Origin: Bryobacterales bacterium
Lineage (GTDB): Bacteria; Acidobacteriota; Terriglobia; Bryobacterales; Bryobacteraceae
Reading direction: 5' to 3'
DNA: 64,000 nt
NCBI GenBank assembly: GCA_016789745.1
Contig: JAEUQF010000139.1
Coordinates: 60,520-124,519, forward strand
The notes beneath the pieces were generated by a model that saw nothing but the letters and a program-made list of their open reading frames with translations, was not told where the DNA came from and ran no database searches. A program made the position numbers and the translations under genes. Positions 51,441-59,575 of the stretch are shown here, piece by piece (the stretch's first letter is position 1; each line of letters opens with the position of its first letter).

Positions 51441-51900
51441 TTAAGCGGCGTCTTCAAAGGTAGCGACGATGCGTTTGCCAAGTTGGGCGAGGGCTGCCTG
51501 GATGCGCTCAGGCTTGGTGGCGTGCTTGGGATTGAGCATGCGGCGGATGACGGTTTCGCTGACGCCGAGGTGGCGGGCGAGGTCGGTGTTACGGAGGCCG
51601 GATTCCTTCATGGCGAGGTAGATGGCGAGTTTGGGGGCAAGGGCGAGCGGGACGCTGATGGGGTATTGGCCGCGCTTGGGGGTGGAGGGTTGGGGATGCC
51701 GTCGCCACGGGAGATACGGCCGGCGAGGGCTTTGGCGAGACAGTCGCTGGCCTGGAGTTTGGCGTCGGCGAGGGTTGTGCCGCTGGTGAGGGCTTCGGAG
51801 GCAGGGCAACCGACGTGGTAGCGGAGTTATGGCTCTTGAGGATGGGGCGGGGTAAGTGGCGTGGTGAACAGGCGATGATCGCGGAGATCTCAGGGGGCCA
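51441..51900 (-). pseudogene. HicB-family antitoxin (copy B) with in-frame stops and a frameshift
   Basis: The C-terminal HTH part is intact: YPISVPLALAPKLAIYLAMKESGLRNTDLARHLGVSETVIRRMLNPKHATKPERIQAALAQLGKRIVATFEDAA. The N-terminal part lies in another frame (YHVGCPASEALTSGTTLADAKLQASDCLAKALAGRISRGDGIPNP). It is preceded by in-frame TAA and TGA codons, and the frame switch occurs in a C5 run. Confidence 0.6.
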
Positions 51901-51903
51901 TGG

Positions 51904-52302
51904 TCAAGTCGCGCAAACGCCGTCGGGGAGAACGAGTTTTTCGAACATTGGCGCGGGGTAGAGGTAGTCCTCGCCGGACTCGTCGATGATGCGAATCACG
52001 CCTTCGGCCTCGGCTTCGGCATCGTCCACCACGGGGTACAGTTTACGGATCTCGAGGGAGGCGAGGTAGTCGGCATTATTGAGGCAAACGGCGAAACGGA
52101 GAAGGGGCAGAGTGTTGCTGGAGGGCATACTAGAGTCGACGAGGCGCTTGATCTTGAATTCGTTCCTGCCGGTGCCGGAAACCTCCTCGCAATGGACTTC
52201 TGCTCTTCGGATTTTACCAGTTGGCAGTTTCAGGTCCGCGATGCCCTTGCCGATAGCAAACGTCTCGACATCGGTGATCTCATCGCAGATCACGAATGAC
52301 AT
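51904..52302 (-). CDS. hypothetical protein, apparent fusion of two small conserved modules (HCEEVSGTGRNEFKIKR... and ...IRIIDESGEDYLYP...)
   Basis: Internal ATG 52302 (MSFVICDE...). The upstream part of ORF 51904..52566 is Pro/Ser junk antisense to the TPR remnant's tail. The region is lower in GC. Confidence 0.55.
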   Translation of the reverse strand: MSFVICDEITDVETFAIGKGIADLKLPTGKIRRAEVHCEEVSGTGRNEFKIKRLVDSSMPSSNTLPLLRFAVCLNNADYLASLEIRKLYPVVDDAEAEAEGVIRIIDESGEDYLYPAPMFEKLVLPDGVCAT

Positions 52303-52372: not shown

Positions 52373-53406
52373 CTATCGGTTGAGAAGCCGGAGTGAGAGG
52401 GTTGCGATCCAGCGCCAGAATCGAGGGCGGATGCGGGGCTCTCCTGCCCCGATGGATGCGATCCAGGAGGCGAGGGGCTCCAGTCCTTGCATGCCATCTC
52501 GTTTGGCGGCGGCGAGCAGTTCCTGGGCGGAGGTGCGGTCAAGGGCGGCCTTTTTCGATTGACCAATTTTGAGGAACGCGATTGCGCGATTCGCGAGGGC
52601 TCTTGCCAAGTCTGGACGCAACTCCGGGCGTCCGTGGTCCATCAGCCGGGCGATGATGGCGATGGCCGCGTCGTGCTCCGCGATCGCGGCCGCCGCTTGC
52701 CCCAGAGCGCTGAACGCATTGCCTTTGTTCATCCGCGCACTCGACAGGTCGTTCTCCAACTCCGGGCGTCCGTCGTCCACCAGCCGGGCGAGGATGGCGA
52801 TGGCCGCGTCAAACTCCTTGATCGACGCCGCCGCTTGCCCCAGAGCGCTGAACGCATTGCCTTTGTTCATCCGCGCACCCGCCAGGTTGTCCTCCAACTC
52901 CGGCCGTCCGTTCTCCACCAGCCGGGCAATGATGGTGATGGCCGCGTCGTACTCCTCGATCGCCGCTGCCGCTTGCCCCAGCGCGCTGAGCGCGAGCCCT
53001 TGCTCAAGCGCGCACTGGCCAGGTCGATCTCCAACTCCGGGCGTCCGTTGTCCACCAGTTGAGAGAGGATCATGTGGCCGACCTGGCAGAACTGAAAGGC
53101 CTGACGCCGATCCTGGCGGTGGTACGCCTGGTAAGCGACGCCCATTGCCTGCTGGGCGTGAGCCTCTTCGATGTGACTTGGCCGCTCGGCTACCACTTCC
53201 TGCAGCGGCGGAATTATGCCGTAAAAGATCTGGGGAACATCGAACTCCGGCAACTCGGAGGCGAGCAGGATGCGGCTGCGGCAGAGGCTGCTCAATGCGG
53301 CTTCCAATCGCGCTCTGTCATCAAAAAGAAGGGCTAAGGCCTCCTTGCGTAAGGGGAACGGAAAGAACGCAACGAGGGAGAGGAGGTTTGAGTACAATGT
53401 CCACAA
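52373..53406 (-). pseudogene. 5'-truncated, frameshifted STAND (NB-ARC-type) winged-helix + TPR-repeat protein remnant
   Basis: ORFs 52867..53406 and 52373..52918 are one gene with a 1-nt deletion at about 52995, reading ...LSKG^(L)ALSALGQAAAAI... It begins inside a winged-helix-like segment (LLSLVAFFPFPLRKEALALLF...LCRSRILL). No P-loop domain can lie upstream, because that DNA encodes the trypsin gene on the other strand. Confidence 0.65.
52600..53060. repeat. 138-bp (46-codon) tandem repeats, at least 3.5 copies
   Basis: ccgcttgccccagagcgctgaacgcattgcctttgttcatccgcgcac recurs at 52693 and 52831, with a diverged copy at about 52969. The protein unit is GRPELE.DL..ARMNKGNAFSALGQAAA.I.E.DAAIAI.ARL.D. 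Confidence 0.8.
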
Positions 53407-54404
53407 CCGCCATGCCAGAAGAACTCCTGTCGACAGCGCTACTTGGGGAAGACTACAACGATCTGGTCACGGCAGTCACGGCGGCATTCAATGAAAGAGA
53501 GTTACGGCTGTGCGTTCGCACCAAGCTCAACGTGCGTCTGGACGAGGTGGTCCACACGCCAAGCACGCTAAAGGACAAGGTGGTGGACCTGGTCGACTAC
53601 GCCGAACGTACGCAGTGCATCGCCGCGTTGATTGGGGGACTTCGAGCCAGCAACTCGACCAATCGTCAATTGCAGGAGGTGGCGACGCGAATCCTGAGCA
53701 GGACCGTGCGGACTGAGCGAGCGCTTGAAAGGATTGTGACGCATAGCCGGGCGAAGTTCAGCGACCCGCGGCAGTTCAGTGAACAGCTGGCAGCTTGTGA
53801 ACGGCGGGTCTGCCGGATTGAGGACACGGGCGGCGGCCCCTTGGGGTCGGGGTTCCTGATTGCAGCGGATCTGGTGATGACCTGTAATCACGTGGTAAGC
53901 GGGCGGACGCCGTCCGGACTGCGGTTCCGGTTTGACACACGCGCGTCAGGTGGACCGGTTGGCGCCTCCGGGCTAACTCAGAGCGCGACCGCGCTGGTGT
54001 GTTCGAGCGGAACGCAGGAACTGGACTACGCCGTGATACGGCTGGCGGAACGGATCGGCGATGCCGCGGTGGGCAGTTATCAAAGCGCTCCAGCCCGCGG
54101 TTGGCTGGAGTTTGCCAGGGAGGAGGTGGCGATTGGGGAAGCGGTTCTGATCCTGCAGCACCCCAATGGAAGCGACCTGGTCCTGGCGCAAGGAGGCGTG
54201 CTGGGCAAGTCGGGCACGCGACTCCAGTATCGGGTCAATACGGATCACGGCTCATCAGGATCTCCGGTGCTGAACACGGATTGGAGAGTAGTGGGTCTTC
54301 ACAGCAATGCGTCAGAGTGGGAGCATAACGAGGGCATGCAGGGCGGACTGATCCTTGACCACTGGGAAAGGAATGGTGCGCAAAGCCTGACTGCTAGCGC
54401 GTAA
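53397..54404 (+). CDS. EAD1-like adaptor domain fused to a trypsin-fold serine peptidase
   Basis: ATG 53397 lies 10 nt after AGGAGG. The N-terminus reads LLGEDYNDLVTAVTAAFNERELRLCVRTKLNVRLDEVV...VVDLVDYAERTQCIAALIGGLRASNSTNRQLQEV. The catalytic triad is TCNHVV / LDYAVIRL / DHGSSGSPV. Confidence 0.8.
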   Translation: MSTTAMPEELLSTALLGEDYNDLVTAVTAAFNERELRLCVRTKLNVRLDEVVHTPSTLKDKVVDLVDYAERTQCIAALIGGLRASNSTNRQLQEVATRILSRTVRTERALERIVTHSRAKFSDPRQFSEQLAACERRVCRIEDTGGGPLGSGFLIAADLVMTCNHVVSGRTPSGLRFRFDTRASGGPVGASGLTQSATALVCSSGTQELDYAVIRLAERIGDAAVGSYQSAPARGWLEFAREEVAIGEAVLILQHPNGSDLVLAQGGVLGKSGTRLQYRVNTDHGSSGSPVLNTDWRVVGLHSNASEWEHNEGMQGGLILDHWERNGAQSLTASA

Positions 54405-54416
54405 CCCGGAGTCGCG

Positions 54417-56759
54417 ATGCCCCAGTTTACGGGAGAGCAATACGAAGAGCTATTCGTAATTCTGGCGGGGATTGCGGGCAAGAAGCAGCCTGCCAGTTCT
54501 CACCCGGAAGAGGCTGTACAGGAAGAATTGGATGCCGCGGAGCGCCAGGACCGCGTCCTCACCTGTGCGTGTCGATGGTACGCAAAGTGGCGGGATCCGG
54601 CACTGGAGAGATGGCTGCGCCGGAACTGGCGACACTTATCCGAGATCGAAGCGGAACCGAAACCGGTCTGCCCCGCCGGGATTCTGCCGGAGACTGTCAA
54701 CAATCCATATCCCGGGATAAAGGGATTTGATGTGGAGGACGGGGCACGGTTTTACGGGCGCGGCCGGGAGTTGGAACAAGTGCAAGCGGGGCTGGCGAAG
54801 CGCTTGGAACAGAATCTGCCGCGGATGTTGGTAATCGCAGGGGAATCGGGCGTCGGTAAGTCTTCCTTCGCAAGGGCAGGTCTGCTTTACGGACTTCGCC
54901 GAGGAGACGTTCCGGGAAGCCGGCACTGGCCGCAGCGGATTATGCGACCGGGCAAGAATCCGGCAAACTATCTGGTTGACCAGGTTGTCGATCCGAACTG
55001 GCCGGCGGCACAAATCAGCCAAGACAAGAAGGCCATGGAAACGGATCCGGGCATATTGCATCACAGCGTGCAACGGAATATGCGGGATCGTGGTGAGCAG
55101 GAGCGTTGGGTCTTGCTGGTGGATCAGGCGGAGGAAGCGTTTACCATCGCGGACACGAAACAGCGAGAGGCGTTTTTTCGAAACCTTCTATTTGCGGCGG
55201 CGCAGCCGGAGGGCAAAGCGCTGATCATTCTGACGATCCAAGAGAACTTCCTTTCGACGCTGCAACAAATGGAGCGGGGTTGGGTGACAGGTGCCGAGAC
55301 CTTTTCGTTGCAAGTGATGCAGGAAGACGCCGTGAGAGAAGTGATCGAAGAACCTGCACGGAAGCGGGGAGGCACGGTAGAAGCTGGCCTGAGTGACCTG
55401 TTGTTGCGGGACGCCGGCGGCGAACCAGGACAGAAACTGGCGCTGATCCAAGACGTGCTCGCCAACTTGTGGGCGTTAGGTAACGGACAACTGCGTCTCA
55501 CGGATTATGTGACACAGGGAGGGTTAGATAATTTCCTACTGGATCGGGCGCGGAAGGCTTACCGCGAGAGTGAGCATCAAGAGATCTGGCGTGAACTTGC
55601 CCTGCAGTTGGCCGTGCCCTCCGATAGGAAGCAATATCTTCGCGTGAGCGTAACGTTAGAGGAGTTGCCGGGAGCGGGCTCGCCGGGGAGGGACGCGGCG
55701 CTACGGGAGTTGCTGGGCACAGGACTGCTCATTGCCCGTGGACCCCTGGAATCTCCGGCGACGACCCGGATCGAGGTTTCGCACGAAATTCTTTTCACGG
55801 TGTGGAGAGGTCTGCGTTGGTGGCTTCGCCACAATCAGAATTACCTGCAATGGAGAGCGGGATTCCGGCTGGATTGCGCCCGATGGCAAGTGGGCAGGAG
55901 GTCGGAAGATCTGCTGCGTGGAGAGCGGCTACGGCAGGCCAAGGGGCAACGGAACTTAAAGCGTGCCCGATTCACAACTGCTGAACTCCAGTTCGTGCGG
56001 GCGTCGGAGCGTCACCGCCTGTGGAAGTATGTTTTGATCCTTGCGGCCGCGGTGATGGTTGCGACGGCGGGATATGGCGCCAAGGTATCCCATGACGCGA
56101 AGGAGGCTGTTGGGTGGATCGCGGAAGCGCGTCAAAGACTGCGCAATGAGAACTCACCAAGATCGATGCATGAAGCGTTGCTGATTGCGCTGCACGCCGA
56201 GGCGCGCAGGCATTCCCGGGAGTCGGAGGAACTGTTACGGGAAGCGTGGCTGTCGGTGAAAGGGGCAGAGTTCTACGCACAGGATGAAACGATTCTGCGG
56301 GTTTTGTTTGAAAAAGACGGCATTGGGGCGATCACCTTCAATCCGGCCGATCAATCGTATGGAGTTTATCGTGGGGGCAACCGCACGACGATCCCACCAG
56401 GCGACCGGTTGATCCCGGAAGAGAATCCGCCACTGGTGGCGCAGCACGATGGTGTCGAGTACGTTGTCAGTCATGGCGTGAAGATTACCGCGCGGACGCG
56501 AGGATCGGGGGAGACGATCTGGGAGGTGAATGAACAGGCGAACATTCGCATGCTTCAGATCAACCCTGATCAGCGTGTACTGGCGATTGGGCGAACAAAC
56601 GGGCAGATTGTATTGCTGGATTTGGACCTGCAGCGCCTTATGTCGCAGGTTGCGGCTGCCCTGCAGACGAAACGGCAGGCATTTTCGCTAGACGCGGTGT
56701 GCAAGAAATACTTTGACAGCGAATGCTTCGCCCTTCCGCCCGCGTCCAAGTCTCCGTAG
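54417..56759 (+). CDS. nSTAND-type P-loop NTPase with TM helix and a degenerate WD40-like C-terminus
   Basis: It starts 12 nt after the upstream stop, with GGAG before the ATG. Motifs are NPYPGIKGFDVEDGARFYGRGRE, VIAGESGVGKSSFARAGLL (Walker A) and WVLLVDQAEE (Walker B). The TM helix is LWKYVLILAAAVMVATAGYGA. The C-terminus contains ...RVLAIGRTNGQIVLLDLD. Confidence 0.8.
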   Translation: MPQFTGEQYEELFVILAGIAGKKQPASSHPEEAVQEELDAAERQDRVLTCACRWYAKWRDPALERWLRRNWRHLSEIEAEPKPVCPAGILPETVNNPYPGIKGFDVEDGARFYGRGRELEQVQAGLAKRLEQNLPRMLVIAGESGVGKSSFARAGLLYGLRRGDVPGSRHWPQRIMRPGKNPANYLVDQVVDPNWPAAQISQDKKAMETDPGILHHSVQRNMRDRGEQERWVLLVDQAEEAFTIADTKQREAFFRNLLFAAAQPEGKALIILTIQENFLSTLQQMERGWVTGAETFSLQVMQEDAVREVIEEPARKRGGTVEAGLSDLLLRDAGGEPGQKLALIQDVLANLWALGNGQLRLTDYVTQGGLDNFLLDRARKAYRESEHQEIWRELALQLAVPSDRKQYLRVSVTLEELPGAGSPGRDAALRELLGTGLLIARGPLESPATTRIEVSHEILFTVWRGLRWWLRHNQNYLQWRAGFRLDCARWQVGRRSEDLLRGERLRQAKGQRNLKRARFTTAELQFVRASERHRLWKYVLILAAAVMVATAGYGAKVSHDAKEAVGWIAEARQRLRNENSPRSMHEALLIALHAEARRHSRESEELLREAWLSVKGAEFYAQDETILRVLFEKDGIGAITFNPADQSYGVYRGGNRTTIPPGDRLIPEENPPLVAQHDGVEYVVSHGVKITARTRGSGETIWEVNEQANIRMLQINPDQRVLAIGRTNGQIVLLDLDLQRLMSQVAAALQTKRQAFSLDAVCKKYFDSECFALPPASKSP

Positions 56760-56809
56760 GTTCAGCGAAAATAATTGTGATACGCTGTCGCGGACTGGAG
56801 GGACCGCCT

Positions 56810-59575
56810 GTGCGACGAAGCGTCTCCTTGTGCTTTCTTTTCTGGTACGCGAGTGTAGCACCATCGCAGACCATCTCTAGCATCTCACCGACATCGGTGG
56901 CAGCCGGGTCCGGTGACACCACGTTACTCGTTTCCGGAGCAGGATTCCAGGGCGGTTCGCTGTGCGCGACCGCGTGCGGAATAAGGTGTGCTCGAAGAAG
57001 TGTTGTCCAACTCGGCGGCGTGAGCCTGAGCACGACGTTTGTGAGCAACTCGGCCGTAACCGCGGTCGTGCCGCGGTCACTGCTAGCGTCGGCGCGGGTT
57101 ACGCAAGTGACGGTAGTGAACCCCATCGATGTGCAGTGCGCGGCTGGTACGAGCACGGTATCGAGTCCAGTGCGATTTGAGGTAACGCAGGCGGAATCGA
57201 ATCTCAGTGTGAATCCGAGCCGAATCACCTTGAGATCGGGCGTGGTGCCGCTCACGGACAACGCGCCGCAAGCATTGACGGGATCGAGCATGCTGTCGAA
57301 TCGAGGGCCGGTCGCTTACTCCTTCACCGCCAGCACAGGCAACCCAAACATCTTTGTGCAGCAGTTGGTACCTGCCCCGGTCTCCTGGTTGACGGTAACA
57401 CCTACGAGCGGGCGCTTGGAGGCGTTCGGGTCGACCAGGTTGGACCTATCGGTGTATCCGGCGGGTTTCAGGCCGGGGACCTATACGTCCTACGTGACGA
57501 TAGTGGGAGTACCGATCGCGGTGACGCCAGCAGCACGCAGCGAGCGGTCTGCCGCGACGACGGAAGTGCTGACGATTGAGGTTGTGCTGGTTGTGGAAGA
57601 GCCGACCGATCTGGAATTCGTTCCGGATACGCTAAACCTGACGGCGCCGCAGAATGGCGTCGCCAGCGGTACGTCGATTTTGACCAGCACCGGCACGGCG
57701 GCGCTGGATTGTGACCAGATTCAGGACGAGGGATCGTCTGGAACCGGCTGGTTCTCTTATACGAGGCGAAATGCCGGTGCGTCATGCGAAGTGGGCGTAA
57801 CGGCGACAGCCGGTACGTTATCTCCGGGCCTTTACGTTGCAAGGCTAAAGGTGCGTCCGAGTCTGGATGGCCGGGTTGCGACCCTCACGGTGAACTTCAC
57901 GGTGACTGCCGCCGATGCGACGATTACGCCGTCGGTGTTGACGATCACTTGCGATACGTTGGGCGAGGGGAACCGGATCATCAGCCAGCCGCTGCGAGTG
58001 AATTCTCCGGTGGGCGCGGAATTGGGATTCGCGGCGATCGGGTCGAGTTTTGGATCATGGCTGGAGGTTTCGCCGGGGAGTGCGCGGACCACGGCAAACC
58101 TGGAGGTGACGTGTGACCCGAACCAGATCCCTTCGTATCCGGCCTTGGGAACGGTCCGACTCAGCCCGACGATCTCGCCAGAGCGTGCGGTGCGGATACC
58201 GGTACGCGCGGAGGGGCCGAGAGGGCGTCGTGTGCTGCCGTATCTGGTTGATGGCGGCGGTGACGCGAGCACACTTGTGCTGGTGAACTCAGACCGCAAT
58301 GCGGCGACGGTACAGCTGAGCTTTTACCGTACGAACGGGGGTCCGGAAGGTGCCGTGGATACGTGGACGCCGGGGACAGCAGCAGGGGTGAATACAAGCA
58401 ACTTCACACTGGCACCGGGTGAAGTATCGCGCATCCCGCTAACGGTGAGCAATGGGCAGCGTACGACCGGGTGGGTGGAGGTGGGTGTTGGCCAAGCGGA
58501 TGTGAACGGTTGGGTATCGGTTCGATCAGCGGATGGGCGCCGGGAGACACTGACGGGGTTGCTGGCCCAGAATCTGCCGGAGTCGGTAGTGCCGTTTGAC
58601 AACCGGAACGGCTCCACGACGAGCCTGGTGATTACGAATGCGAGTGCTGACCCGGGCGGGGCTCAGGTGCGGGTTCGCGATGCACAGGGCAATGTGATCC
58701 GCACAGTGTCGCGCAGTCTTGCCGCGCGTGGGCAAGACGTGTTCCGGCTCAGCGAGGAGATTCCCGAATCGGCTGGGCGTATGGGCGTCATCGAGGTGGC
58801 GCAACTCGCGGGGCAGATTTACCCCACCGGACTGATCCGGAGCGCAGGAGGGGATTTTGGGGTTGCGCCGCAGCGATTGAACCGCGCCGCGAAGGGGCGG
58901 CGCACAACGCCGCTGGTTGCCGACGGCGGAGGTTTCTGGACGGAGATCACGATTCTGAATACGTCCTCGACACAAGCGGTAATCACACTCCGCTTTCGGC
59001 GATCCGGAGGCACGGGCAGCAGTGAAGCGTGGAGGCCGGAGTTGGTAGATGACGCGGGCATCGAGCAGATCCGGCTGAATCCGCGGGGCAGTTATCGGGT
59101 GATTACGCAAGGGGCAGGACAAGAGACTACGTTCGGCTGGGCTGAGCTGATTTGTCAGCAATCGGTAGCGGCGTTCTCGCGGATAATCCAACCGGCAGAG
59201 CAGACGAACGCCGAGACGATGCTTGGATGGAACCACGGCAATCCGGATCGGTTTCTGATGCCGTTCGACACCAGCCTGGGAACGAACCGTACGACTTATC
59301 TGCTTTCGAATATCAGCGCGGACCAGCCGGCGACGGTCGAGTTGCTGTTTCGCAGCCGGCAGGGGACGCTGCTACGACGGCATACTTTGCCGCCGATCCC
59401 GCCGCAGGGGTACAGTTCGATCGACGTTGGAGCGCAGTTTGAAAGTCTGGGACAGCGGGAAGGGTACACGGAGTTTGACGTCAAGACGGGAGTGATCACG
59501 GCCTCCGGTCTCAGGTCGGGGACCGGAAGCGCGGTGGTAACACCACTGTGGCCGGTGAGTACGGCCCGCGAGTAG
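56810..59575 (+). CDS. secreted IPT/TIG + Ig-like protein with four ~105-aa C-terminal repeat modules
   Basis: The GTG start at 56810 lies 8 nt after GGAGGG and avoids overlap with the upstream gene. Reads VRRSVSLCFLFWYASVAPSQTISSISPTSVAAGSGDTTLLVSGAGF. Later repeats have the form (V/L)P.(L/F)(V/D).G.G..T.(l/i).(l/i).N. Confidence 0.75.
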   Translation: MRRSVSLCFLFWYASVAPSQTISSISPTSVAAGSGDTTLLVSGAGFQGGSLCATACGIRCARRSVVQLGGVSLSTTFVSNSAVTAVVPRSLLASARVTQVTVVNPIDVQCAAGTSTVSSPVRFEVTQAESNLSVNPSRITLRSGVVPLTDNAPQALTGSSMLSNRGPVAYSFTASTGNPNIFVQQLVPAPVSWLTVTPTSGRLEAFGSTRLDLSVYPAGFRPGTYTSYVTIVGVPIAVTPAARSERSAATTEVLTIEVVLVVEEPTDLEFVPDTLNLTAPQNGVASGTSILTSTGTAALDCDQIQDEGSSGTGWFSYTRRNAGASCEVGVTATAGTLSPGLYVARLKVRPSLDGRVATLTVNFTVTAADATITPSVLTITCDTLGEGNRIISQPLRVNSPVGAELGFAAIGSSFGSWLEVSPGSARTTANLEVTCDPNQIPSYPALGTVRLSPTISPERAVRIPVRAEGPRGRRVLPYLVDGGGDASTLVLVNSDRNAATVQLSFYRTNGGPEGAVDTWTPGTAAGVNTSNFTLAPGEVSRIPLTVSNGQRTTGWVEVGVGQADVNGWVSVRSADGRRETLTGLLAQNLPESVVPFDNRNGSTTSLVITNASADPGGAQVRVRDAQGNVIRTVSRSLAARGQDVFRLSEEIPESAGRMGVIEVAQLAGQIYPTGLIRSAGGDFGVAPQRLNRAAKGRRTTPLVADGGGFWTEITILNTSSTQAVITLRFRRSGGTGSSEAWRPELVDDAGIEQIRLNPRGSYRVITQGAGQETTFGWAELICQQSVAAFSRIIQPAEQTNAETMLGWNHGNPDRFLMPFDTSLGTNRTTYLLSNISADQPATVELLFRSRQGTLLRRHTLPPIPPQGYSSIDVGAQFESLGQREGYTEFDVKTGVITASGLRSGTGSAVVTPLWPVSTARE

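Follow-up and report, generated by a model that had tools for sequence, protein, structure and literature searches.

We describe here a pair of adjacent genes in a 64,000-nucleotide (nt) stretch of the metagenome-assembled genome (MAG) of a Bryobacterales bacterium (contig JAEUQF010000139.1, positions 60,520 to 124,519 of the forward strand); this whole stretch is called the window below and its numbering is used throughout. Gene 1 encodes the effector-associated domain (EAD) EAD1 joined to a trypsin-like serine protease, and gene 2 encodes a STAND NTPase of the nSTAND1 clade. The EAD-coupling principle, together with EAD1-trypsin effectors, was described by Kaur et al. in 2020 (PMC7159879), while nSTAND1 was defined by Kaur et al. 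in 2021 (PMC8195603), where the architecture is given as [EAD1/2/7/8 or TIR, trypsin, caspase or kinase]-nSTAND1-[FGS etc.]. In Thiohalocapsa PB-PSB1 the DGR6 pair consists of EAD8-nSTAND1-FGE and EAD8-trypsin (bioRxiv 10.1101/2023.09.22.558884). In the CARD-NLR systems defence requires a CARD-like domain that is carried by a trypsin-like protease and stands beside an NLR-like STAND protein with a non-CARD helical N-terminus (PMC10312443); in LypABC the CARD of LypA binds LypB's N-terminal domain heterotypically, and this LypB domain is essential (PMC13236601); and in Avs2 tetramerisation of the STAND protein activates the trypsin domain fused to it (bioRxiv 10.64898/2026.08.25.746987). Sensors of the WD40 and FGE-sulfatase types, as well as an nSTAND clade, appear in a 2026 survey of STAND proteins (PMC13581612).

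The pair resembles the EAD-coupled systems most closely. As in these (PMC7159879, PMC8195603), an N-terminal EAD is carried by a trypsin-fold effector encoded beside an nSTAND1 protein with a C-terminal repeat or sensor region, which is FGS, WD40 or TPR in the published class, and both they and the pair studied here are known from computation only. The adjacency of an NTPase core that marks EAD coupling is present, the nSTAND1 gene lying 12 nt downstream of the EAD-effector gene. The defining coupling feature is absent, however: the NTPase has no recognisable copy of the EAD of the protease, and the same EAD on effector and core NTPase was not found within the 64-kb window. The pair also differs from these systems, and from the Thiohalocapsa pair, in that its sensor is reduced to about three WD40-like blades and that it has no diversity-generating retroelement. 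Both enzymes are intact by sequence, their genes are tightly linked, and EAD1-trypsin genes are associated with NTPase cores family-wide. We would give about an even chance to the reading that the pair is a minimal STAND-activated protease conflict module of the abortive-infection type, probably functional and relying on heterotypic docking. Its features are as follows (aa, amino acids).

53374-53386, + strand: purine-rich Shine-Dalgarno-like stretch GAGGGAGAGGAGG, ending 10 nt 5' of the gene 1 ATG (read from the sequence)
53397-54404, + strand: gene 1, EAD1-trypsin-like serine protease, 335 aa (coordinates include the stop codon; from open reading frame and Pfam)
53439-53693, + strand: EAD1 adaptor domain, predicted all-helical bundle, aa 15-99 (Pfam PF19955)
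53694-53807, + strand: conserved helical linker with the motif LE.I...DP..W/F...E..VCRIE, aa 100-137
53808-54341, + strand: trypsin-fold (PA clan) protease domain, aa 138-315
53889-53891, 54024-54026 and 54261-54263, + strand: catalytic codons H165, D210 and S289 (from alignment A1 and SplB)
54408-54411, + strand: GGAG Shine-Dalgarno of gene 2, within the 12-nt intergenic gap, 5 nt before the ATG
54417-56759, + strand: gene 2, nSTAND1-clade STAND NTPase, 780 aa (from open reading frame and Pfam PF20703)
54417-54572, + strand: orphan N-terminal segment of gene 2, aa 1-52, with low-confidence predicted helices and no detectable EAD1
54705-55907, + strand: nSTAND1 NTPase module, aa 97-497 (PF20703)
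54840-54863, + strand: Walker A, GESGVGKS, gene 2 aa 142-149
55113-55136, + strand: Walker B, LLVDQAEE, gene 2 aa 233-240
56019-56087, + strand: hydrophobic helix LWKYVLILAAAVMVATAGYGAKV, aa 535-557, Kyte-Doolittle 1.84, with basic residues before it
56289-56627, + strand: short WD40-like beta region, presumed reduced sensor, aa 625-737, about three blades

Gene 1 encodes an EAD1-protease in which all conserved positions are retained. A preliminary description of the locus, made from the letters alone, had proposed an EAD1-like module fused to a trypsin-fold peptidase with a complete H/D/S triad, and both parts of this proposal are borne out; the coordinates, strand, lengths, 12-nt gap and GGAG that it gave all agree exactly with the open reading frames and the sequence. 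PF19955 matches aa 15-99 with 31.7 bits (34.1 with the N-terminus alone; cut-off 24.2), and a hidden Markov model (HMM) that we built from 33 trypsin-linked EAD1s scores the domain at 77 bits. Trypsin_2 (PF13365) matches aa 150-301 with 71.8 bits (cut-off 27.6). H165, D210 and S289 line up with the SplB/V8-type triad and are invariant in an alignment of 33 EAD1-trypsin proteins (A1), and gene 1 keeps the triad and all 18 invariant columns of this alignment. In the same proteins the linker and junction segment (aa 100-142, 53694-53822) contains the near-invariant E111, C139 and R140, and the linker between EAD1 and protease could be a regulatory or processing segment. The AlphaFold2 (AF2) model, with a predicted local distance difference test score (pLDDT) of 88.2, consists of helices (aa 17-30, 33-44, 48-51, 58-71, 75-85, 90-116 and 124-135) followed by a double beta-barrel, and Foldseek against the PDB matches the whole model best to Esp, V8, SplB, HtrA and Rv3671c (E 5e-13 and above). 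As the protein has no hydrophobic N-terminus, it is presumably cytoplasmic. We found 71 homologues, mostly with the same EAD1 plus Trypsin_2 architecture. The protein itself (P0001) is also encoded, by identical DNA, on two short contigs of other metagenome assemblies; being identical, these two copies carry no information on the ratio of non-synonymous to synonymous substitution (dN/dS), and a selection signal on gene 1 is unobtainable from them.

The NTPase encoded by gene 2 is equally well preserved in its core. The protein is identical to P0072 of a Bryobacterales bacterium MAG (locus tag JNK87_12125), which bears out the Acidobacteriota origin. PF20703 matches aa 97-497 with 250.6 bits (cut-off 27.1) over profile positions 1-378 of 379, and in a family alignment of 34 sequences (A3) the protein retains each of the 16 invariant and 15 near-invariant columns. 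The earlier call of an nSTAND protein with Walker A, Walker B and the family box was correct save for one detail of the box, which reads NPYPG...F...DG..FYGRGRE (aa 96-118) and has a single substitution, G for the consensus A (DG for DA). The AF2 model exceeds a pLDDT of 90 over aa 100-550, and its top Foldseek match is full-length Apaf-1 (3shf, E 1e-8), at 11-12% identity and with TM-scores of 0.15-0.28, which are low, as expected for a multi-domain protein. No solved nSTAND1 structure was found. An exhaustive phmmer search of 1.84 billion representatives (E<=1e-3) returned 27,036 representative clusters, the closest only 35% identical, and the nSTAND1 proteins closest to it have TIR, kinase and FGE-sulfatase domains, as is typical of conflict systems. 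On sequence comparison both ends of the protein are orphans, because among the best 150 of these 27,036 relatives the best-matching stretches all begin at aa 53 or later and end at aa 649 or earlier. Judged from its domains, the calls of which are correct, the locus is a further member of a class already predicted computationally, and it adds an acidobacterial example. The preliminary description had placed it among the NTP-dependent conflict systems of Kaur et al. (2020), and this class membership holds, although nSTAND1 itself was defined in 2021 (PMC8195603).

Genes 1 and 2 are probably co-transcribed, since they share one orientation, only 12 nt separate them and a Shine-Dalgarno of its own precedes gene 2. 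The GC content over gene 2 is 0.58-0.60, about 3 points lower than the 0.61-0.64 of the flanks, and this dip is not decisive as a sign of horizontal transfer.

An NTPase core accompanies the EAD1-trypsin gene in every locus that we compared. Sixteen comparison loci were assembled, seven reached via homologues from the protein collection, the other nine taken from GTDB genomes; the latter are a biased set, as they were found via the peptide patterns [HY][DR][VT]NTDHGS (active-site serine) or LILQH[PA]. A P-loop NTPase core occurs within a few genes of the EAD1-trypsin gene in all 16. It is an nSTAND1 in L006, L010 and L013, a NACHT/NPHP3-like STAND in L003, L008, L011, L015 and L017-L020 (in L003 about 2 kb off and on the opposite strand) and a TIR-WD40-Roc GTPase in L012, and MoxR-vWA/VMAP ternary systems are found in L005, L009 and L014. 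A second EAD1 protein is encoded beside the protease gene in 15 of the 16 loci; eleven of these second EAD1s exceed the Pfam cut-off and four are recognised by our own HMM only (E 1e-3 to 1e-5). The exception is L003, in which the gene directly downstream encodes a calcineurin-like phosphoesterase. By these counts the studied locus obeys the NTPase-adjacency rule and breaks the second-EAD rule. The conserved pairing looked for in the preliminary description is real as regards the NTPase core (with nSTAND1 in three loci), while the second EAD1 that usually goes with it is absent here.

Some of the comparison loci have features of their own. L008, L015, L017, L018 and L019 contain a three-gene module of EAD1-trypsin, an EAD1-small P-loop NTPase (about 350-450 aa) and a large P-loop protein of 840-2270 aa, which is AAA_16/NPHP3_N-like with TPR in L008 and L019 and was identified by its Walker A motif only in L015, L017 and L018; this layout recalls CARD-NLR and LypABC. 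Two of these loci, L017 (Paracoccus sediminis DSM 26170) and L018 (Massilia sp. Leaf139), are from cultured bacteria. In L005 (8001-16421, Bryobacteraceae MAG) a same-strand cluster encodes EAD1-trypsin, a 343-aa EAD1 protein, a MoxR-type AAA_5 ATPase, a 1014-aa FGE-sulfatase protein and a diversity-generating retroelement (bAvd and reverse transcriptase). L006 (6260-13151) has a run of three genes, for EAD1-trypsin, a 419-aa protein with a weak EAD1 and an nSTAND1 whose C-terminal domain is a Trypsin_2; this run has a Terminase_6N gene directly upstream and may be in a prophage setting. The N-terminus of about 100 aa of the L006 nSTAND1 is likewise not a detectable EAD1.

The N-terminus of gene 2 departs from the published scheme of EAD coupling. 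It had been noted earlier that the first helix of gene 2 echoes that of gene 1, from which a homotypic adaptor pair was proposed. There is indeed a motif, QFTGEQYEEL, in register with positions 6-15 of the EAD1 HMM (the first EAD1 helix), but it covers ten residues only and its E of 0.05-0.26 for a single sequence is not significant, i.e. about chance level. A second short in-register echo, EEAVQEELDAAERQDRV, resembles the A-E-x-E-G-W-L helix. The homotypic EAD1 pair is unsupported, as four approaches were all negative: BLASTP of the gene 1 and gene 2 N-termini gave no alignment at E<=100, Pfam found no EAD of any type at E<=10 in gene 2 aa 1-100, our own HMM reached E 0.63 over the first 160 aa, and hhalign of an 18-sequence EAD1 profile with the N-terminus gave 3% probability. 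None of the 149 closest relatives of gene 2 has an EAD1 (0/149), nor was a second EAD1 found anywhere in the window when its six-frame translation was searched with our HMM. A word-indexed protein search with aa 1-94 returned no match at E<=10, a weak negative given that the parent P0072 was not returned either. The segment unmatched in relatives (aa 1-52) is, on its length, too short for an EAD1 of 85 aa, and AF2 gives pLDDT values of 42-51 in it.

The hydrophobic helix of gene 2, which the preliminary description had regarded as atypical, turned out to be family-typical. When an equivalent helix was defined as a hydrophobic 19-mer with a Kyte-Doolittle value of at least 1.6 lying 320-520 residues past Walker A, it was found in 151 of 187 relatives (P0073-P0264), mostly preceded by arginine runs. 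In gene 2 it is part of a long AF2 helix (aa 521-577) and could serve as a membrane anchor. The family-defining paper (PMC8195603), when searched by terms, nowhere mentioned that nSTAND1 has a transmembrane segment. Should the helix cross the membrane, sensors of the WD40 or FGE-sulfatase type would sit outside the cytoplasm.

Past this helix, Pfam recognises one WD40-type stretch (ANAPC4_WD40, aa 694-747, 25-27 bits), and a BLASTP comparison with the WD40 array in the relative P0073 gives blade-like matches, e.g. IRMLQINPDQRVLAIGRTNGQIVLLDL. In the AF2 model about 11 strands, amounting to about three blades, are predicted over aa 625-737 at a pLDDT of 47-72, so that the tail was rightly called WD40-like, but its blades had been undercounted as one or two. 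No further blades are encoded in another frame downstream of gene 2, where the next open reading frame (ORF) is that of a TIG/BACON protein.

Comparison with the characterised systems shows both the precedents for the pair and its peculiarities. In CARD-NLR (the Lysobacter gasdermin operon and its Pedobacter and Azospirillum variants; PMC10312443) and in Caulobacter LypABC (PMC13236601) a helical adaptor of about 100 aa is likewise carried by a trypsin-like protease, and the adjoining STAND/NLR-like ATPase likewise has a different helical domain at its N-terminus; LypA and LypB dock heterotypically through adaptor and N-terminal domain, and CARD-NLR and LypABC need both protease and ATPase activity. 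These systems differ in having three or four genes, among them those for a second protease and for a pro-effector (gasdermin, nuclease or phospholipase), and their ATPase belongs to another STAND clade and carries TPR-like repeats; the second protease and/or protease-activated effector typical of CARD-NLR operons has no counterpart in the pair, which consists of two genes only. As to the six-helix death-fold N-terminus of CARD-NLR, AF2 places six helices in gene 1 aa 17-116, the Foldseek list of the model being filled by proteases, and the EAD1 profile searched against PDB sequences found no solved CARD-like domain, only designed helical repeats (E>=0.0075). Avs proteins (AVAST; Avs1, Avs2-trypsin-MBL) are similar in that a STAND NTPase controls a trypsin-fold protease, which is activated by oligomerisation, and different in that the protease is fused to the STAND protein, that large TPR-array sensors bind phage terminase or portal, and that the NTPase is of another clade; the Avs/AVAST family models of PADLOC and NCBIfam do not match the pair beyond weak partial Avs1b matches to about 35 residues of the gene 1 protease domain (E 0.057 and 0.16), and gene 2 has nothing in these collections except a P-loop-only match to mad8. 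Apaf-1 of the apoptosome has the same order of N-terminal recruitment region, STAND NTPase, helical domain and WD40-type sensor and likewise recruits a separately encoded protease via an adaptor; it differs in its homotypic CARD-CARD recruitment, in its protease, a caspase and not a trypsin-fold enzyme, in its two full propellers (7 and 8 blades) and in having no hydrophobic helix.

How such a pair might work can be outlined by analogy with characterised STAND/NLR proteins, from which, and from the related systems above, we infer the sensing, oligomerisation, docking and substrates. The nSTAND1 protein would be held in an ADP-bound off state until a trigger, sensed via its short C-terminal WD40-like stretch, leads to nucleotide exchange and oligomerisation. 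The oligomer would then recruit and concentrate the EAD1-trypsin protease via EAD1. Because gene 2 has no recognisable EAD1, we favour heterotypic docking, in which EAD1 would bind the helical N-terminus (about 95 aa) of the NTPase, as the LypA CARD does with LypB's N-terminal domain; self-association of EAD1 might add to this. The proximity-activated protease would cleave cellular or invader proteins, causing growth arrest or death, and since no pro-effector gene (gasdermin, nuclease) is present downstream of the pair, it would itself be the terminal effector. It is predicted that in this soil acidobacterium the pairing kills or arrests infected cells.

In favour of such a STAND-activated protease module are the retention of all conserved catalytic and structural positions, the confident AF2 models of protease and NTPase, the tight spacing and the NTPase cores in 16 of 16 loci, as well as the published EAD-trypsin and nSTAND1 layouts, the precedents of CARD-NLR, LypABC and Avs2, and the Apaf-1 match. 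Several observations weigh on the other side. There is no cognate EAD1 on gene 2 or in the window, as opposed to a second EAD1 in 15 of 16 comparison loci. The orphan ends of gene 2 (aa 1-52 and after about 650) have no matches among its best 150 of 27,036 relatives, and the AF2 model has low confidence over aa 1-93 and in the C-terminal beta region. The tail past the helix comprises 223 aa compared with a median of 620 in relatives (250 aa or less in only 23 of 150), so the sensor was rightly described beforehand as atypically reduced; where EAD-coupled cores have large variable sensor regions, gene 2 has these 223 aa with about three low-confidence blades, a fragment that cannot by itself close a propeller. 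A promoter and terminator scan gave no signal exceeding that of shuffled sequence and neither favours nor disfavours an operon. The immediate neighbours are housekeeping or envelope genes and a decayed TPR gene, with no clear defence island, and PADLOC and NCBIfam recognised no defence system at the locus, only partial protease-domain similarities. Finally, the literature searched contains no experiments on any EAD1 or nSTAND1 protein, and the preliminary description had known of none on a trypsin-EAD/nSTAND pair; systems that follow the same logic, with an adaptor-trypsin and a STAND protein, have been studied experimentally.

The pair could also be a decaying relic, an explanation that we consider unlikely. 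Here an ancestral [EAD/effector]-nSTAND1-WD40 gene would have lost its adaptor or effector and most of its propeller, leaving the pair uncoupled. Apart from the short C-terminus and the few WD40-like blades of low pLDDT, the N-terminal extension is short, with Walker A at aa 142 compared with a median of 204 (145 or less in only 24 of 187 relatives); the QFTGEQYEEL and EEAVQEELDAAERQDRV echoes may be what is left of an EAD1 that suffered an internal deletion; and the adjoining TPR gene is truncated and frameshifted, a sign of gene decay at the site. However, both ORFs are intact (335 and 780 aa) with every catalytic and family-invariant residue kept, the ribosome-binding site and the 12-nt spacing are retained, and other short nSTAND1 proteins (695-880 aa) exist, so that the short form may be a viable type. 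The dN/dS ratio neither favours nor disfavours decay, the only other copies having identical DNA.

It is quite unlikely, in our view, that the two genes are merely uncoupled neighbours, with the EAD1-trypsin protein serving an EAD1-bearing core (STAND, MoxR-vWA or GTPase) encoded elsewhere and the nSTAND1 protein acting alone or otherwise. A genome does often encode extra EAD copies at other places, the cognate EAD being on a core component (Kaur et al. 2020, PMC7159879), gene 2 has no detectable EAD1, and our EAD1 search covered 64 kb, on a contig about 137 kb long that is itself part of a whole MAG. Against this, the 12-nt spacing and the Shine-Dalgarno argue for co-expression, in none of the 16 comparison loci is the protease gene more than a few genes away from an NTPase core, and an nSTAND1 protein without the protease would have no effector domain.

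A role outside defence, as a proteolysis or lysis switch of a host programme such as envelope signalling by a membrane-anchored NTPase or LypABC-like release of gene-transfer agents, is very improbable: LypABC is a CARD-protease/NLR-like module co-opted for programmed lysis outside defence islands (PMC13236601), the same-strand neighbours are of envelope or secreted type (the 950-aa TIG/BACON ORF, then a TonB-dependent-type outer-membrane protein) and no known defence genes adjoin, but there are no gene-transfer-agent or prophage genes nearby, no relatives in viral contigs (IMG/VR), conflict-typical TIR, kinase and FGE-sulfatase domains in the closest nSTAND1 relatives, and no positive evidence for any specific host programme.

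Returning to the STAND-activated protease module, a bolder version of it would be a working minimal apoptosome, to which we attach little probability. In this version EAD1 would dock heterotypically on a non-EAD N-terminus of about 50-95 aa, the three-blade WD40 would close only across several subunits, and the family-wide Arg-flanked helix would anchor nSTAND1 in the membrane, on the far side of which the sensor would lie; if true, nSTAND1 proteins would form a class of STAND receptors that span the membrane.

Both EAD-linked effectors and NTPases of the nSTAND1 clade occur in large numbers (27,036 clusters match gene 2) and have been proposed as bacterial counterparts of the adaptor-mediated protease recruitment of apoptosomes and inflammasomes. 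What distinguishes the present locus is the absent cognate adaptor and the cut-down sensor, which could reflect either a simplified working design or decay. An intact EAD1-protease stands here beside an intact STAND protein in which no EAD1 is detectable, and the locus is thereby a natural exception to the rule of homotypic EADs; if the two proteins do not interact, it shows a decay route of such modules. By itself the locus opens no long-standing question. Because its cognate adaptor is absent and its sensor is cut down, it is also a poorer experimental model than canonical loci of cultured bacteria, and better test beds for EAD1 coupling are Devosia insulae DS-56 (L011), Paracoccus sediminis DSM 26170 and Massilia sp. 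Leaf139, all of which have the canonical arrangement.

Two further features adjoin the pair:

52376-53466, - strand: TPR gene remnant outside the module, 5'-truncated and frameshifted, abutting and overlapping the start of gene 1
56723-59575, + strand: TIG/BACON ORF, 950 aa, with TIG and BACON_2 matches and a signal-peptide-like segment, abutting gene 2

From its first ATG the TIG/BACON ORF overlaps gene 2 by 37 nt, while a start at the GTG at about 56810 would leave a gap of about 50 nt. No terminator-like site was found between the two, and the ORF may be co-transcribed with gene 2. The gene for the TonB-dependent-type outer-membrane protein follows downstream of it.

On the other side, the TPR remnant is spread over two reading frames (52870-53466 and 52376-53317, - strand) and matches TPR_12 and other TPR families with E down to 3e-6, all under the Pfam gathering cut-offs; it contains a tandem repeat of 138 bp x 3.2 (52619-53058). 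Its absent 5' part would fall where gene 1 sits, which suggests gene turnover at this site, and its frameshift may be an error of the MAG assembly. Its N-terminal residues may resemble the winged-helix end of a STAND NTPase, but Pfam matches nothing there. Farther upstream of gene 1, beyond the remnant, lie a small HTH_3 gene and an amidohydrolase gene. The HTH_3 (XRE-type) gene and an adjoining small ORF without a Pfam match occupy 51444-51809 and 51907-52300, both on the - strand, and a toxin-antitoxin-like layout of these two small genes is suggested solely by the HTH_3 match, which at 21.7 bits lies slightly under the cut-off.

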